This document shows, in pieces, positions 19,418-28,960 of a stretch of DNA of 64,000 nt (position 1 is the stretch's first letter; each line of letters begins with the position of its first letter). This DNA comes from Octopus sinensis. Its lineage: Eukaryota. The notes under the pieces were generated by a model. The model saw only the letters and a program-made list of their open reading frames with translations, did no database searches and was not told where the DNA came from. A program made the position numbers and the translations under genes. The stretch is taken from positions 1 to 64,000 of the forward strand of contig NW_021830461.1 of NCBI RefSeq assembly GCF_006345805.1. Reading direction: 5' to 3'.

Positions 19418-22400
19418 CAAACTCTTATCACAATACATGTACACCAAAAAGATATATTTGACATTCTTGTAATACTGGTATTTATTAATTGTAGGTTAAA
19501 ATGCATATCCGGTCAATTAGCGATTTTGAATGGCTCAAGCAATCTAGATTTTATTTCCAGGAAGATGAAGATAAATGTATTATTTCGATTACTGATGTGA
19601 TTTTTCTTATCAAAATGAATATCTCGGATGTACAGATCGACTCGTCATCACTCCTTTAACTGATCGGTATCTAATTGACTAACTTTTAATTTCAGGTGTT
19701 ACATTACGTTGGCACAAGCTCTGGGAATGTCCTTGGGTGGAGCTCCAGCTGGACCAGCAGGAACTGGGAAAACAGAAACTGTTAAAGATATGGAAGATGC
19801 TTAGGAAAATATGTTGTTGTATTTAATTGTTCTGATCAAATGGATTTCCGTGGACTTGGGAGAATATATAAAGGCATTATTTTGAATTAGATATTTTAAT
19901 AGGTTTGGCAGAATCTGGTTCATGGGGGTGCTTTGATGAATTTAATCGAATTGAATTACCAGTCCTGTCAGTAGCAGCGCAGCAAATTGCAATTGTGTTG
20001 ACTGCCAAAAAAGAAAGGAAGCATCAATTTATATTTACAGACGGAGATGTTGTAGATCTTGACCCTGAATTCGGTCTATTTTTGACCATGGTTTTATTTG
20101 TTTATCGGTACAAAAGTAGAATCCAGGATATGCCGGTAGACAAGAATTACCCGAAAACTTAAAGATTAATTTTCGAACTGTTGCAATGATGGTACCTGAT
20201 AGAGGAATTATTATACGCGTCAAATTGGCAAGTGCAGGTTTTGTTGGGAACGTAATACTTGCCAAAAAATTCTTTACACTATATAAACTATGTGAGGAAC
20301 AACTTAGCAAACAAGTTGAAGCTTTTACTTCAATATACAGGTTCATTATGACTTTGGATTGAGAAATATTCTTTCTGTTTTAAGAACTTTGGGGGCATTT
20401 AAGAGGGCAAATCAAAATGACTCAGAACCAACCATTGTAATGAGAGTATTAAAAGATATGAATGTCTCAAAATTGGTAATAAATTTATAATACTATTTTA
20501 TTAAGGTTGATGAAGATGAACCGCTGTTCATGTCACTGATTGATGACCTTTTCCCAGGAATGCAACTTGAAAAGGCTGGTTATCCAGAAATGAGAGTGCA
20601 ATTGCTGATCAAGTAATAACATATGGTTTTAATTCAGGTCGAACAAGAAGGACTGATTTACCATCCACCGTGGATTCTTAAACTTATTCAACTGTATGAA
20701 ACACAGCGGGTACGCCACGGAATGATGGCCCTTGGTCCATCTGGATCAGGAAAGACAAATGCATCAAAGTTTTAATGAAAGCTATGACACAATGTGGCAT
20801 TGTACATAAAGAAATGAGAATGAATCCCAAAGCTATAACCGCACCACAAATGTTTGGAAGGTTAGACGTGGCCACAAACGATGGACTGATGGAATATTTA
20901 GTACTTTATGGAGAAAAACACTAAAAGCCAAAAAGGTATGGTTTAATAGATTTACAGCTTTCTAAGGGAGACCACATTGGCTAATTCTTGATGGACCAGT
21001 AGATGCAATTGGGATTGAAAACCTCAATTCAGTACTTGATGACAATAAAACGCTGACTCTTGCTAATGGAGACAGAATTACGATGTCTCCTACATGTAAA
21101 ATTATATTTGAAGTTCATAATATTGACAATGCTTCTCCTGCTACCGTTTCTCGTAATGGAATGGTATATATGAGTTCCTCTATTATGGAATGGGAACCAA
21201 TCCTAAAAGGTGTCAATAGTGTTCAATAATTTGCAGGCTGGCTGACAACAAGACCATCAAATCAAGCAGATATCATTTTTGAATGTTTAAAAAACGTTTG
21301 GTCACAATGTTTATGCTTTGTAAAACAAAATTTAGTTTCAAAAATTGAGGCATTCTTGTCATTTCTCACTTTTTAGATATTGGATTGTAATTACATTCAC
21401 CAATTTATTAATATTTTAAACGGAATGCTTCCTTCAACAGAAGAAACAAAAACTGTAACTCAAAAACAAATAGAATCAGCAATATTTTTTGCATTAATGT
21501 GGTCACTGGGATCTCTTCTTGAAATTCCTGATCGTCACAAAGTTTTTAATTTTGTAAAAAATAATTTATAGTTAGAAGAACACATTAAAGAAAATTACAA
21601 TTCGTTATCTATTCCAACATGTGAAAGCGATTCTACAATATTTGAGTATGTACCTGATAATACTGGAAATTGGGTTCATTGGGAATCTCGGGTTGTTTTA
21701 AAAATATTAAAATTTAGGTGAATCTATATAATTACCCGAAAGACAATATTCCTGAATATGTGAGCATTTTGATCCCTAATGTTGATAACATCAGAACTGA
21801 TTTTCTTGTAAATATAATTTCTAAGCAAGGAAAATCTGTTCTTTTAATTGGAGAACAAGTATATTAACGTATTTACTAAATTTTAGGGAACCGCCAAAAC
21901 AGTTATGGTTGAAGGTTACTGCAATAAATTTGACCCTGAACAGCACATGTTTAAAAGCATGAATTTTTCTAATGCAACAACTCCAATGATGTTTCAAGTA
22001 AACAAAAATAATCTAAAAATTAGAGAAATATTGAAAGCTACGTGGAAAAAAGGATGGGAACAACATACGGTCCTCCAGCAGGACGTAAAATGACTGTTTT
22101 CATTGATGATATAAATATGCCAATAATAAATGAATGGGGTGACCAGGTAATAATATTTGGTTTCAATTTTAAGATCACGAATGAAATAACTCGACAAACT
22201 ATGGAACAAAACGGGTTTTATAACCTTGAGAAGCCAGGAGAATTTACCACTATCTTAGATGTTCAGTTCATTGCGGCAATGATTCATCCTGGTGGTGGAC
22301 GAAACGATATTCCGCAGCGACTAAAGCGGCAGTTTAGTGTTTTTAATTGTACACTGCCTTCTAACAATTCAATTGATAAAATATTCAAAACAATTGGCCA

Positions 22401-25400
22401 AGGATACTTTGATACAGTTAATCTTTAATGTCATGTTGCAGTGTCGTTCTTTTAATAGCACAATTATAAATTTAATTCCCAAACTAGTTCCTGCAACTAG
22501 GATTTTATGGCAACGAGTAAAGATGAAAATGTTACCAACACCTGCAAAATTTCATTACGTATTTAATTTACGTGACCTTTCAAGAATATGGCAGGTATGT
22601 TGTTAATAATAATATTTCCAAAAGGGAATGCTAAACGTACAAAGCGAAATCGTCAATGAAGCATCCGACTTGGTATCATTGTGGAAACATGAATGCACTC
22701 GAGTTATTGCGGACAGATTTATAGATGTTCAAGATTTGGAATGGTTTAACAGGGCTCTTAAAATTGTGTTTTTTTGTTGGAATTAATCCATAGGTACTTG
22801 AAGAAGAATGTGGGGAAGAAATCGCATCACAAATTGACCCAGAACCTTATTTTGTTGATTTTATGAGAGATCCTCCAGAATTAACAGGTTAATTTATTTT
22901 TTCTAAATGAAATTTTATAGGAGAAGAAGGCGAGGCTGACGTAGAAGATCCAAAAGTTTACGAATCAATTCAAACATATGATGCATTACTAAAACGCCTT
23001 ACTTATTATCAAGGAAGTTATAACGAATCTGTTCGATCAGGGAAAATGGACTTGGTCTTTTTCAAAGTAAAAGTGTATTATTTATTTTAAATAGGATGCT
23101 ATGACACATATTGTTAAAGTTTCCCGTATAATTAGAACAGTTAAAGGACATGCAATTCTTGTTGGAGTTGGAGGATCGGGAAAACAGAGTATCACTAAAT
23201 TGGCATCCTTTATTGCTGGTTACGAGACTTTCCAAATAACATTGACACGGTTTGTAACTTAAGTATGTTTATTAACGAATAAGAGCTTACAATGTTTCAA
23301 ACTTGATGGATGATTTGAAATATCTCTTCAAGACAGCGGGACATCGCGGAAAAGGAATAACCTTTATTTTTACCGACAATGAAATAAAGGATGAAGCTTT
23401 TCTAGAATATATAAATAACATGCTATCTTCTGGGGAGGTTTTCCTGTTGGCTATTATTTTCAAATAGATAGCAAACTTATTTCCAAGGGATGAAATGGAT
23501 GAAATACATCAAGAACTAATTCCTATAATGAAACGAGAGCTACCCCGTGTTCCTCCTACAACTGAAAATTTACACAATTTTTACATGACAAGAGTTAGAA
23601 AAAACTTGCATTTAGTTTTGTGTTTTTCTCCGGTTATTGAAGTTGGTTACTATTGTTAAGGTTGGCGAAAAGTTTCAAAACCGAAGTCTTAAATTTCCAA
23701 GTCTCATTGCTGGGACGACCATGGATTGGTACCAAAGATGGCCCAAAGAAGCTTTGATCGCCGTATCTGAATACTATCTTGCAGATTTTGTAATTGATTG
23801 CACAGAGCAGGTCAAAAAAAGTGTCGTTAAAGTCATGGGAGAATTTCAAGTAAAATGTCGTAAATGAATTAAAATTTAAGGATTTCGTTGCAATTACATG
23901 CGTAGATTACTTTCACAGATTCAGAAGACAAGCTCACGTTACTCCAAAATCTTACTTGTCCTTCATCAACGGATATAAGAAAATATATGAAGATAAAAAA
24001 AAGAATATTGACGAATTGGCAAGACGAATGAATACTGGTCTAATAATTATATATTGTAATCACAGGTTTAAAAAAACTTTTGGAAGCTACGGAATCTGTC
24101 AATATTTTATCTTTGGAATTGGCAGATAAGGAAAAAGACCTTGAAGTAGCAAACCGTGAAGCCGACGAGGTGTTAAAAGAAGTCACAGTAGTCGCTCAGG
24201 CTGCAGAAAAAGTAAAAATTCAAGTTGCAGCTGTAAAAGACAAAGCACAGGCTATCGTTGATAGTATTTCTGTAATATGTGTTGAAAAATTTAATCATGA
24301 TAGGCAGACAAAGTAATTGCCATGGAAAAACTAAAAGAAGCTGAACCCGCACTTCTGAAAGCAGAACAGGCTCTTCAAACAATTAAACCCGCTCATATCG
24401 CAACTGGTAATTACTATAATTAATTTTTACTTAGTTCGGAAGCTTGGTAAACCTCCTCATTTGATTATGAGAATAATGGATGCAGTACTAATTTTATTTC
24501 AACGAAAATTGGACTCTGTCCAACAAGACCCTGAAAAACCAACAGTCAAACCTTCTTGGTCCGAAGCACTTAAATTAATGTCGAGTGGAAACTTTCTCCA
24601 AAACCTTTTGAATTTTCCAAAGGCATACATCAATATCAATAAAAATCGAATAATAGGACACTATTAATGCTGAAATGGTCGAATTAATGGAACCGCTTCT
24701 AAACCAAGAAGACTATACTCTAGAAAATGCCAAAAAAGTTTCGGGTGACGTTGCAGGATTGTTGTCATGGACAGAGGCTATGAGTGTTTTTTATTTCATA
24801 AATAGAGATGTTCTGCCACTTAAAGTTAAATATCAATAATAACCTTATTAAGGCTAATCTTAAAGTGCAAGAAGCGAAATTAGCTATTGCAATGGACGAT
24901 CTCAAATCTGCTCAAGATCAGTTAGACGAAAAGCAGAGAGAACTAGACAAAGCACAGTCCATCTATGACTGCGCAATGATGAAGAAACAAGTATTAAAAT
25001 AATTTAACAAATAAACTAGGCTTTACTTGATGATGCAGAAGCTTGTCGTAAAAAGATGAGTAACGCTGAACAACTAATCGACGGGCTATCAGGCGAGAAA
25101 ATAAGATGGACGGCCGCGAGCAAACAATTTTCTAATCAAATATTTAAACTTGTCGGAGACGTGCTAATCTGTACTGGATTCTTATCTTACGGAGGACCGT
25201 TTAATCAACAATTTCGAAATATTTTAATACAAAACTGGAAAAAAATGATGGTTAAACAAGGAATCCCATTTGATGAAGTTGATTTATGATTTAAATCTGT
25301 AGGATCTAAATATCATAAATATGCTTGTTGATAATACAACAATAAGTGAATGGAATATGCAGGGGTTACCAAATGATGAACTTTCAACGCAAAATGGTCT

Positions 25401-28400: not shown

Positions 28401-28960
28401 TGGGAGTCGACTAGTATTGGATTTTGGTTTACAAACCTTTTGGAACGAAATGCACAGATCAATGCATGGCTATTTGGAGGCAGGCCCAAAACATTCTGGA
28501 TGACAGGATTTTTTAATCCTCAAGTGGATTTAATTTTTACTCAAAATAGGGCTTCTTAACTGCAATGAGACAAGAGATTACAAGAGCTCATAAAGGATGG
28601 GCATTGGACAATGTCTCATTGGCAAACGAAATACTTAAATATTCCAAAGAAGAAATTACCAAATCCCCCGAGGAAGGTGTGTATGTCTACGGTTTATATT
28701 TGGATGGAGCCGAATGGGACAAAAAGAATTCCAGATTAATTGAACCTCAACCTAAAGTTTTAAACACAATGTTACCCGTTGTGCACATATTTGCTACTAA
28801 TTCGGAAAGACAATCTGGAAAAACATTATACGAATGTCCTGTTTACAAGAAACCTCGTCGTACTGATTTGAATTATATCTTTGCACTATTACTAAAAACA
28901 CGCAAAGAACCAGAACATTGGATTCTTAGAGGCGTTGCAGTGCTATGCGACACGAAATAA
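19418..28960 (+). CDS. Outer-arm axonemal dynein heavy chain (DNAH5/DNAH8-like), motor half only, about 47 mini-introns, frameshifts near the 5' end
   Basis: [62 protein letters not shown]-terminus [14 protein letters not shown]. Confidence 0.93.

Follow-up and report, generated by a model that had tools for sequence, protein, structure and literature searches.

A 64,000-nt stretch of DNA (the window) assembled under the name Octopus sinensis contains a dynein gene that a first-pass annotation described as interrupted by about 47 introns of 25-34 nt, some 200 nt apart. The questions raised by this locus are whether such segments are introns at all, whether they are old introns that became small, how they could be told from exon, and whose DNA they belong to.

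The gene (19421..28960, forward strand) encodes the motor half of an outer-arm gamma dynein heavy chain, from AAA1 to the C-terminus. It corresponds to residues ~1888-4624 of human DNAH5, that is, to the last ~2,740 of ~4,620 codons; the model has no start codon and the 5' ~1,885 codons are missing. When positions 19201-29100 were put through spliced alignment, with intron sizes of 15-90 nt allowed, against a profile built from 18 gamma-type dyneins, the gene resolved into 48 exon pieces and 47 introns, every one 25-34 nt long. Their median length is 28 and their mean 28.7 nt, they are spaced 197 nt apart on average, and the spliced frame has no stop codon. Lifting the upper length limit returned the identical 47 introns, the longest still 34 nt. 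All 47 segments have GT(GC)-AG ends and their removal restores a colinear reading frame, just 3 codon insertions and 7 deletions being needed over 2,732 aligned columns. If retained, 37 would shift the frame, 9 more would introduce an in-frame stop and 1 would be neutral. Because retention breaks the frame or adds a stop in these cases and the alignment is nearly gap-free, the 47 introns are not a product of chance. Number, size and spacing are thus as first described, and the coordinates given for 19469-19494, 19667-19695, 22417-22441 and the last intron, 28524-28549, were exact.

All dynein introns lie on the forward strand. Introns 1-8 are at 19469-494, 19667-695, 19874-902, 20091-119, 20315-340, 20476-505, 20613-637 and 20936-966; 9-16 at 21210-236, 21350-376, 21542-571, 21692-717, 21859-886, 21998-22023, 22147-173 and 22417-441; 17-24 at 22595-624, 22766-793, 22888-920, 23067-094, 23250-283, 23438-467, 23633-660 and 23850-880; 25-32 at 24038-065, 24272-303, 24407-434, 24623-656, 24825-852, 24991-25019, 25278-302 and 25495-526; 33-40 at 25683-707, 25891-917, 26162-190, 26497-524, 26665-693, 26862-892, 27029-060 and 27201-231; 41-47 at 27397-422, 27618-643, 27795-828, 27941-966, 28124-151, 28365-394 and 28524-549.

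The 5' end of the dynein piece coincides with a head-to-head join (19415..19420), where the frame of a second gene also starts abruptly. This is the 3' part of the dynein assembly factor DNAAF11/LRRC6 (18777..19420, reverse strand; introns of 30, 30, 29, 30, 32 and 37 nt), recognised in an open frame by the PF23602 matches of two neighbouring exons, one to profile 66-88 and the other to 89-120; its 5' part is missing. A tblastn search of the window for the dynein 5' half, with the first ~1,900 aa of two references as queries, gave 0 matches (valid rows were P0133 and P0214 only, the anchor motif being absent in the others). Moreover, six one-base deletions, absent from the first-pass annotation, cluster at 19600..20977 on the forward strand. 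As assembled, truncated and frameshifted, the dynein may be a dead copy. A truncated pseudogene or the product of a true rearrangement, whose introns would no longer be spliced while still displaying the organism's intron style, would account for the absent 5' half, the six frameshifts and the cutting of DNAAF11 at the same point; we consider it unlikely. Each deletion is explicable as a shortened base run, and the 8 kb beyond the cluster contain no stop and no shift (identity 67% overall). Since the deletions all fall in base runs no more than 1.6 kb from the join and the next 8 kb are clean, the pattern is that of a poorly covered assembly join. We infer that the deletions are probable long-read consensus errors, and that truncation, join and deletions together are probably assembly faults.

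Five further genes in the window were modelled: MMAA (57636..58844, forward; introns of 52, 29, 50 and 28 nt), SPTLC1 (40264..41820, reverse; seven introns of 25-28 nt with hand-placed donors), SmD1 (50312..50778, reverse; 28, 27 and 28 nt), the modelled part of a YTH-domain gene (30274..30996, reverse; 32 and 28 nt) and TRIT1, a tRNA isopentenyltransferase of 444 codons (3777..5356, reverse; seven GT-AG introns of 22-32 nt plus one AT-AC). Ab initio gene finding was trustworthy on the dynein control alone (11 of 12 introns right); elsewhere it proposed unreliable long introns, which were not counted. The claim that every multi-exon gene shows the same pattern holds for 25 of 29 GT-AG introns in six other genes and fails for introns of 22, 37, 50 and 52 nt and for the AT-AC intron of 53 nt. 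Pooled, the 76 GT/GC-AG introns of the window have a median of 28 nt, 50 being under 30 nt, and the mean internal exon is 168 nt.

The outer-arm gamma dyneins DHC3A, DHC3B and DHC3C, of which DHC3A is missing in human (PMC5100056), share the gamma-type motor domain seen here, and the window copy is 65-73% identical to most animal members. In quick trees with SH-aLRT support only, the window dynein falls outside both the DNAH5 and the DNAH8 groups: the vertebrate DNAH5 group (99) excludes it and it sits in a separate clade (99-100). It is probably the third animal gamma paralog, DHC3A, a label assigned by exclusion in a tree without a named DHC3A reference. DNAH5, proposed as comparator at the outset, is thus not its ortholog. 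The origin of the paralog was placed at the base of animals, and membership of its clade is therefore no proof of a spiralian.

Of the 47 dynein positions, at least 25 are matched exactly in other eukaryotes and 22 are without an exact match. Dynein introns coincide exactly with 11 of 22 human DNAH5 boundaries, one more is 1 nt off and 10 are absent; chance would give 0.21 matches, or 2.1 if proto-splice sites are allowed for tenfold (P about 1e-5). The first dynein intron, for example (19469..19494, forward, 26 nt), stands at human DNAH5 c.5709/5710 (c.5710-2A>G). Vertebrate entries that show exon-skip gaps or insertions support five further dynein positions. A sponge-like locus (L031) has 8 of its 21 intron positions in common with the window dynein, for 0.22 expected. 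In L033, an orthologous locus of the same clade, introns of 400, 418 and 643 nt occupy the codon positions of three successive window introns of 29, 31 and 32 nt (26665..27060, forward), none of which is among the collected DNAH5 boundaries. As at least 25 of 47 positions are old and three of them hold long introns in L033, the introns shrank rather than newly arose, as the first-pass annotation had proposed. Density was retained as well, at 47 introns against 45 over the same span of human DNAH5. The phrase "without intron loss" was nevertheless too strong: besides the 10 absent DNAH5 boundaries and the 22 unmatched dynein positions, the human MMAA boundary at c.733 is absent. L033, within the short stretch covered, is without two window introns (12345, 12510); together with the unmatched positions, this makes some intron gain possible.

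DNAH5 boundaries were drawn from variant listings in a supplement, 92 of 118 places labelled 'intron' being covered; variants 13375+5, 13380+5, 12952-2, 12748-1 and 8221-1 (older or inconsistent numbering) were left out before counting. DNAH8 exon boundaries were sought for comparison and none were found. The metagenome comparison took in 38 of 80 loci, the majority being transcripts without introns or members of other dynein classes; the position tally omits L050 and seven further loci that are likewise distant.

Splice signals are weak, as had been described. Dynein introns are 79% A+T. Donors are GT in 44 cases and GC in 3, the latter being the 29-nt intron at human c.6061 (19874..19902, placed by spliced alignment) and those at 21350-21376 and 24623-24656, all on the forward strand; acceptors are TAG (28), AAG (12) and CAG (7). 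Pyrimidines make up 55% of the 11 nt upstream of the acceptor triplet against 50% of the rest of the intron, and apart from GT/AG every position carries at most 0.64 bit, with no branch or pyrimidine consensus visible. The proposal that 3' splice sites are defined by length met with an obstacle in the exons: these contain 101 GT..AG decoys of 25-34 nt, and length alone therefore cannot mark the introns. The two sets differ in base composition: inner G+C does not exceed 20% in 35 of 47 introns and in 2 of 101 decoys. A rule taking the first AG at 25 nt or more from the donor holds for 46 of 47 dynein introns; applied to five other genes, it keeps the frame open at all 22 donors placed by hand. 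AGs skipped within dynein introns number 15 at less than 25 nt from the donor and 1 beyond, against 3.8 expected for the late ones (P 0.08, not significant by itself). The sole exception (20091..20119, forward) is a tandem acceptor whose nearer AG would lead to an in-frame stop. The 22-nt TRIT1 intron falls below the floor of ~25 nt.

These data suggest a form of intron definition in which the spliceosome would pick a GT or GC opening an A/T-rich, G/C-poor stretch. An AG nearer than ~25 nt would be unusable for want of room for branching, and the cut would fall at the first AG past that point. Length would then act as a floor, not a ruler, and a late first AG would produce an intron of 37-52 nt. 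What separates introns from exonic decoys of equal size is probably their A/T richness and not a pyrimidine tract. The pattern of a length floor would also arise if the branch point lay a few bases upstream of the AG. A strict molecular ruler, with a fixed distance from donor to 3' site as in Stentor, would fit the confinement of all 47 dynein introns to a 10-nt range and the lack of visible branch or pyrimidine consensus. Yet a 10-nt spread is wide for it, its length condition is satisfied by the 101 decoys, and the two longest MMAA introns (50 and 52 nt) as well as the 37-nt DNAAF11 intron end at the first AG past 25 nt. With a range of 22-52 nt in the window where a Stentor-type mechanism has one or two lengths, we regard the ruler as quite improbable and favour a floor combined with first-AG choice and A/T richness. 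Closeness to a physical limit, as had been supposed, is not supported either, since shorter introns are known in D. japonicum (median 24), myxobolids (22) and Stentor (15-16 nt) (PMC13644364).

The DNA is animal. It carries an ORF with an ETS domain (44506..45015, reverse; PF00178, E 5.6e-18), which we take to be animal-specific and hence a marker of animal origin, alongside the motile-cilium genes for outer-arm dynein and DNAAF11. The dynein clade (SH-aLRT 99-100) joins the window with Octopus and two flatworms and excludes two fungi. A gene of the cephalopod host was ruled out: identity to the O. vulgaris ortholog (P0006) is 68% over 1,313 aa, and the two, with end branches of 0.38 and 0.43, are not sisters in the tree. 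An origin in a myxozoan, or in a short-intron parasite from outside the animals such as a Rozella-type fungus or a protist, with its DNA mixed into the assembly, could be entertained on account of the 22-27-nt introns of myxobolids. Myxozoans are not known to have motile-cilium genes; here these are present, as is the ETS gene, and the dynein groups within the animal paralog clade, two fungi and two protists falling elsewhere. The minor spliceosome is moreover reported lost in Myxozoa (PMC10639083), whereas the window has a U12-type intron (below). Such a source is scarcely credible.

Among animals, intron size points to dicyemids, which parasitise cephalopods. Published values are a median of 27 for Dicyema sp. 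(PMC6543705), 26.2 +/- 1.9 nt for D. acuticephalum (PMC2222250) and, for D. japonicum, a median of 24 with an upper quartile of 25 and exons of 167. The window median of 28 exceeds that quartile and lies slightly over the published dicyemid medians of 24-27; with 28 against 24 in D. japonicum, the source is probably another species. In three homolog searches, the 120 best matches of each included no named dicyemid protein, and the taxon is therefore assigned by exclusion and intron statistics. MMAA is 66-74% identical to its homologs whether these come from animals, fungi or bacteria, and hence of no use for placement; ESM Atlas returned only aminotransferase clusters for SPTLC1, with no taxonomy; the window holds no rRNA and, at gathering thresholds, no Rfam match. 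Some other compact ciliated animal (an orthonectid, a flatworm or another symbiont) with real introns of this kind would be consistent with the lack of a direct dicyemid match among the matches listed, with a median above that of D. japonicum and with the unsettled place within the paralog clade, one FastTree run putting the window beside flatworms (91). It would be a third lineage with sub-30-nt introns; among 51 animal genomes such introns occur only in myxobolids and Dicyema, Intoshia linei has a Q10 of 36 and a median of 56, and Dicyema species themselves range from 24 to 27. We judge this very unlikely. The source most likely is a dicyemid other than D. japonicum. The suggestion of parasite DNA under a cephalopod label thus held up as to the non-cephalopod origin and the dicyemid-like introns, its dicyemid part being indirect. 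Altogether, there is a strong case, read from the genome, that these are ordinary major-class (U2) introns, shrunk almost uniformly at mostly kept old positions, in a probable dicyemid distinct from D. japonicum.

Two sequencing runs share at least half of the window's words, the best within a contig set of 2,720 million letters, ~40x the D. japonicum genome; this set would fit parasite DNA inside large host data and may be the source sample. No RNA run is listed as sharing these words. Other runs share 0.06-0.43 of words and same-label runs 0.00; these values were not counted as evidence.

The neighbouring TRIT1 gene adds what looks like a new detail. Its AT-AC intron, of 53 nt (5031..5083, reverse; phase 0 after codon 91), begins with ATATCCTTT and has a branch-like TTCACTTAAC that stops 8 nt short of the 3' end. 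The U12 branch consensus is TTCCTTAAC, from which the TRIT1 box differs by one mismatch. Read as 5083-5031, the segment thus displays the U12-type 5' site RTATCCTT, a branch box near the consensus close to the 3' end, and an AC terminus. For this segment, TRIT1 intron 1, both open-frame GT-AG alternatives were rejected, since they delete at least 17 conserved residues and leave a spacing of 24 where each of 41 homologs has 39-43. The junction aligns between the L and the IEDIF of vertebrate-like homologs, its Leu presumably being the human Leu. At the human minor-intron site, CTG is followed by ATATCCTTA (PMC6717393 supplement; PMC7507305), and the window intron appears to occupy this known position. 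The human and mouse introns likewise start with ATATCCT after the codon preceding IE(D/N), in phase 0, with a U12 branch-like box (PMC6717393, PMC7507305), the difference being one of length: 3,208 nt in human and 4,126 in mouse against 53 here, where splicing by the minor spliceosome is predicted. A second TRIT1 copy (from 63631, reverse) has an identical AT-AC intron (63306..63358, reverse), which, as a duplicate, is not independent evidence; a simple circular overlap was ruled out for this 58-kb-spaced repeat, the match beginning only at 865. A public gene model from here, P0361, leaves out most of TRIT1 and joins it to the next gene, so standard annotation misreads this DNA.

Retention of the AT-AC intron implies retention of the minor spliceosome. 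We think it somewhat more probable than otherwise that an animal with ~28-nt major-class introns still runs that machinery, this intron having gone from 3,208 to 53 nt and no further. If so, two spliceosomes with different length floors would coexist in one nucleus, legible from the genome, offering a natural comparison of minimum intron size. Confirmation of the intron would also place dicyemids with the few fast-evolving reduced animals that, in contrast to myxozoans, nematodes and tardigrades, keep the minor spliceosome. A literature search for dicyemids together with U12 gave a single paper, in which they are not connected; Ogino 2010 could already report it. A 2026 short-intron paper has no U12 or minor-intron term in text or supplement, and the main text of a pan-eukaryote survey of minor introns makes no mention of Dicyema, while the survey's supplements could already contain such a link.

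That dicyemids retain many old positions with introns shrunk below 30 nt is true and already published (PMC6543705, citing Ogino et al. 2010; PMC6736024; PMC2222250). The present locus is a dense, well-anchored example, probably from another species, and its 101 exonic decoys argue against a length-only code. It resembles the published dicyemids in its intron-rich genes, whose exons are near 170-200 nt and whose introns are uniformly 25-30 nt long and conserved in position, as well as in its reduced splice signals and many transposon fragments; the published passages and supplements searched describe no GC donors, AAG acceptors or AT-AC intron. Myxobolid myxozoans (PMC13644364) are alike in their sub-30-nt U2 introns, conserved positions, a 5' signal reduced to GTa and no clear pyrimidine tract, but their medians are 22-27 and their minor spliceosome is reported absent (PMC10639083), whereas the window has a U12-type intron and motile-cilium genes. 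Paramecium (~25 nt), Stentor (15-16 nt) and the Bigelowiella nucleomorph (18-21 nt) likewise have short introns at high density that are weakly marked and lack a visible branch consensus (PMC2222250, PMC2483917, PMC13644364). These systems are non-animal, however, and intron length is nearly fixed in Stentor and the nucleomorph, whereas here it runs from 22 to 52 nt.

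Spliced alignment of positions 19201-29100 against a profile built from 18 gamma-type dynein heavy chains places 47 introns of 25-34 nt in the dynein gene (19421-28960, plus strand), without a single stop codon in the joined frame. The same 47 introns were obtained when the upper length limit was removed. The count and size range given in the first-pass annotation were thus exact, as were the three introns offered as examples (19469-19494, 19667-19695 and 22417-22441). Identity is 67% over 2,732 columns, with three codon insertions and seven deletions; columns are numbered on the gamma dynein reference P0133 (4,624 aa), with residue 1887, the same in human DNAH5 (PDB 8j07), as anchor. 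The introns have a median length of 28 nt, are 79% A+T and occur every 197 nt on average (mean internal exon, 168 nt), with phases distributed 35/9/3. Donors are GT (44) or GC (3); acceptors are TAG (28), AAG (12) or CAG (7). Outside GT/AG, information never exceeds 0.64 bit at any position, and the pyrimidine share upstream of the acceptors is hardly raised. Keeping an intron would shift the frame in 37 cases, add a stop in nine and be neutral in one. Lengths divisible by three are somewhat scarce in dynein (10/47, P 0.05) and not scarce in six other genes (9/29).

All but one of the dynein introns end at the first AG that lies 25 nt or further from the donor, the exception (46/47 conforming) being a tandem acceptor. 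Under this rule the frame also stays open at all 22 donors in five other genes, including those of the 37-, 50- and 52-nt introns. The AGs skipped at less than 25 nt from the donor number 15, against 28.5 expected from shuffling, so that AGs are depleted overall; beyond 25 nt, one is skipped versus 3.8 expected (P 0.08). From sequence, length would appear to act as a floor in acceptor choice. A branch point lying just before the AG, in place of a floor measured from the donor, would give the same pattern, and weak A runs have been suggested to act as branch point (PMC13644364). Length cannot make up the complete code, since exons contain 101 GT..first-AG decoys of the same size (25-34 nt). Inner G+C is at or below 20% in only two of these, as compared to 35 of the 47 true introns, and A/T richness is a likely additional cue. 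The proposal that 3' sites are defined by length would therefore survive as a probable floor of about 25 nt and fails as a full definition, given the decoys and intron lengths of up to 52 nt.

Across six other genes, 25 of 29 GT-AG introns measure 25-34 nt. The rule of tiny introns in every multi-exon gene thus applies broadly, with exceptions of 22 nt (TRIT1), 37 nt (DNAAF11), and 50 and 52 nt (MMAA). The MMAA model came from homology; donors in the remaining five genes were placed by hand and checked by open frames, and three of these introns are also backed by database alignments. The SPTLC1 and SmD1 introns appear there as 9-residue insertions, and abutting Pfam segments support the DNAAF11 intron. 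In TRIT1, a 26-nt micro-exon is apparent within 4848-4929 (minus strand), flanked by 31- and 25-nt introns; the intron after this region (4741-4720) is the one of just 22 nt. Possible upstream introns of the YTH gene, of 50 nt (31202-31153, minus) and 40 nt (31038-30999, minus), are ab initio predictions that homology did not confirm. Coding-looking stretches at 12169-13208 (minus), 34734-35344 (plus) and 51069-51443 (minus) match no confident Pfam family; ab initio models of the first two contain 29-32-nt introns.

To place the introns relative to other genes, 22 human DNAH5 exon boundaries were taken from intronic variant names (PMC11306806, supplement table E2 parts 3-4; rows of the PMC11874857 supplement; part of PMC8584573), leaving out five entries with older or inconsistent numbering. 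Within this partial set, 11 boundaries coincide exactly with window introns, one is a base off and 10 are absent; chance would give 0.21 matches, rising to 2.1 if a factor of ten is allowed for proto-splice sites (P about 1e-5). Over the shared span human DNAH5 has 45 introns (34 to 78 in a review's numbering) versus 47 in the window. Vertebrate database entries contributed five more boundaries, seen as exon-skip gaps or insertions. Among 80 metagenome loci, of which 38 were aligned, the sponge-like L031 has 8 of 21 positions in common with the window dynein (0.22 expected). The gamma dynein of that locus (L031:1-16203) provides a compact-intron comparison, with 22 introns of 38-66 nt. In locus L033, which groups in the window dynein's own clade with weak support (82), the introns at three consecutive window positions measure 400, 418 and 643 nt; these positions lie outside the collected DNAH5 boundaries. 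DNAH5 positions 5882, 6249 and 8647 are human exon boundaries as well.

In total, 25 of the 47 introns have an exact match elsewhere and 22 are unmatched. The view that old positions were kept while introns shrank is therefore largely right, and comparison with vertebrate DNAH5 bears it out for half of the boundaries collected; DNAH5 being a paralog, its mismatches would mostly reflect old turnover rather than loss in this lineage. Retention "without intron loss", on the other hand, is overstated. L033 lacks two window introns inside its covered stretch, and SPTLC1 has seven introns in the window versus 14 in human, both counting against pure retention. So does a human MMAA exon boundary at c.733 (PMC9540587), which has no counterpart in the window MMAA. 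Three introns with G|G junctions seem to sit one base away from where mammals have them: 20936-20966 (6987 versus 6988), 21210-21236 (7231 versus about 7230) and MMAA 58333-58382 (820 versus 819). Intron sliding is a possible cause of these offsets.

One intron, outside the 19469-28549 interval of the first-pass annotation, is of a different type. TRIT1 (5356-3777, minus strand) is open for 444 codons once the 53-nt segment 5083-5031 and seven GT-AG introns are removed. This segment starts with ATATCCTTT, ends in AC and has a branch box, TTCACTTAAC, that stops 8 nt short of the 3' end, as in a U12-type AT-AC intron. Because the 5' motif by itself is found 11 times across the window, position, branch box and frame have to be taken together. 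Twenty-five aligned homologs are colinear across the junction, which lines up with L|IEDIF in vertebrate-like homologs; the spacing between flanking motifs is 41, within the 39-43 found in all 41 homologs bearing both motifs (49 examined). A shorter open GT-AG alternative gives a spacing of 24 versus 39-43, and an alignment restricted to GT/GC-AG introns needs a frameshift at the AT-AC site. TRIT1 is listed as a human minor-intron gene (PMC7507305), with the minor-intron site at CTG|ATATCCTTA, the human intron being 3,208 nt long and that of mouse 4,126 (PMC6717393); the window intron probably occupies this position. Blastocystis minor introns have a median of 39 nt (PMC10639083), making the TRIT1 intron short, not a record. 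No dicyemid-U12 link was found in the accessible parts of PMC2483917, PMC13644364 (text and supplement), PMC6543705 and PMC6736024; Ogino 2010 and survey species tables may record one. On balance, the TRIT1 sequence leans towards a minor spliceosome retained in the source animal.

A second copy of the AT-AC intron (63306-63358, minus) lies in a duplicated TRIT1 and is not independent, leaving one intron in effect. The duplication is a direct repeat, at least 4.86 kb long and 99.7% identical (865-5725 and 59135-64000, 58.27 kb apart), whose second copy extends up to the window end; it contains TRIT1 and a metaxin-like gene (weak GST_N_4 and GST_C_6 matches). The public protein P0361 is 99% identical to TRIT1 exon 1, omits about 230 residues and then runs into the metaxin-like gene; it is a mis-spliced automatic model of either this locus or a near copy. 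Transposon fragments occur all through the window: hAT-type transposase pieces in near-identical direct and inverted copies (8059-9442, 15325-17162 and 5569-6120; weak DUF4371 match), a DDE_1 fragment (49260-49553) and, by eye only, ORFs resembling reverse-transcriptase pieces (250-800, 9864-10265, 13669-14109, 36053-37565 and 53849-54499).

Two quick IQ-TREE runs place the dynein in a clade with the Octopus vulgaris copy P0006, Schistocephalus, Heterobilharzia and unnamed sequences (SH-aLRT 99 and 100), separate from both the DNAH5 and DNAH8 groups. The gamma class reportedly underwent two splits at the animal base, one branch being absent in humans (PMC5100056); by exclusion, the gene is probably DHC3A. 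The dynein sequence sets in abruptly near 19421, and the N-terminal 1,900 or so residues of two reference dyneins have no match within the window. The 3' part of DNAAF11 starts at the same point on the opposite strand, so that two 5'-truncated genes meet head to head at 19415-19420. Six one-base deletions in base runs (19600-20977) are confined to the 1.6 kb next to this join, with none further on. Near 21010, also close to the join, dynein has Gly where homologs have Trp. Both truncations and the deletions would be explained if a head-to-head pair had lost its central segment, or if the assembly was misjoined where long-read coverage was low. These functionally linked ciliary genes may once have formed a divergent pair whose middle was lost, by misjoin or real deletion.

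As to the organism, an ETS-domain gene and a dynein in an animal paralog clade denote an animal, and outer-arm dynein with DNAAF11 a ciliated one. Being only 68% identical to the octopus copy, the dynein is not a cephalopod gene. Among 51 animal genomes, introns below 30 nt were found only in myxobolids and Dicyema (PMC13644364); that source gives quartiles of 23/24/25 and a mean exon of 167 for D. japonicum, and a median of 56 for Intoshia. Other papers report an intron length of 27 in Dicyema sp. (PMC6543705) and of 26.2 +/- 1.9 nt, with conserved positions, in D. acuticephalum (PMC2222250); a dicyemid genome is described with 6.2 introns per gene, a G+C content of 36.7% and 49% repeats (PMC6736024). 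The pooled window median is 28 (n = 76). Myxozoans have reportedly lost the minor spliceosome (PMC10639083). An animal that is ciliated, with this median and an AT-AC intron, is best fitted by a dicyemid other than D. japonicum, which we consider probably the source, in line with the earlier suspicion of parasite DNA. Miniature introns at old positions are a phenomenon already published for dicyemids. The window introns behave like, and probably are, the dicyemid miniature-intron system; their likeness to myxobolid and Paramecium introns is convergence, and they differ from fixed-length intron systems, of which they are not one.
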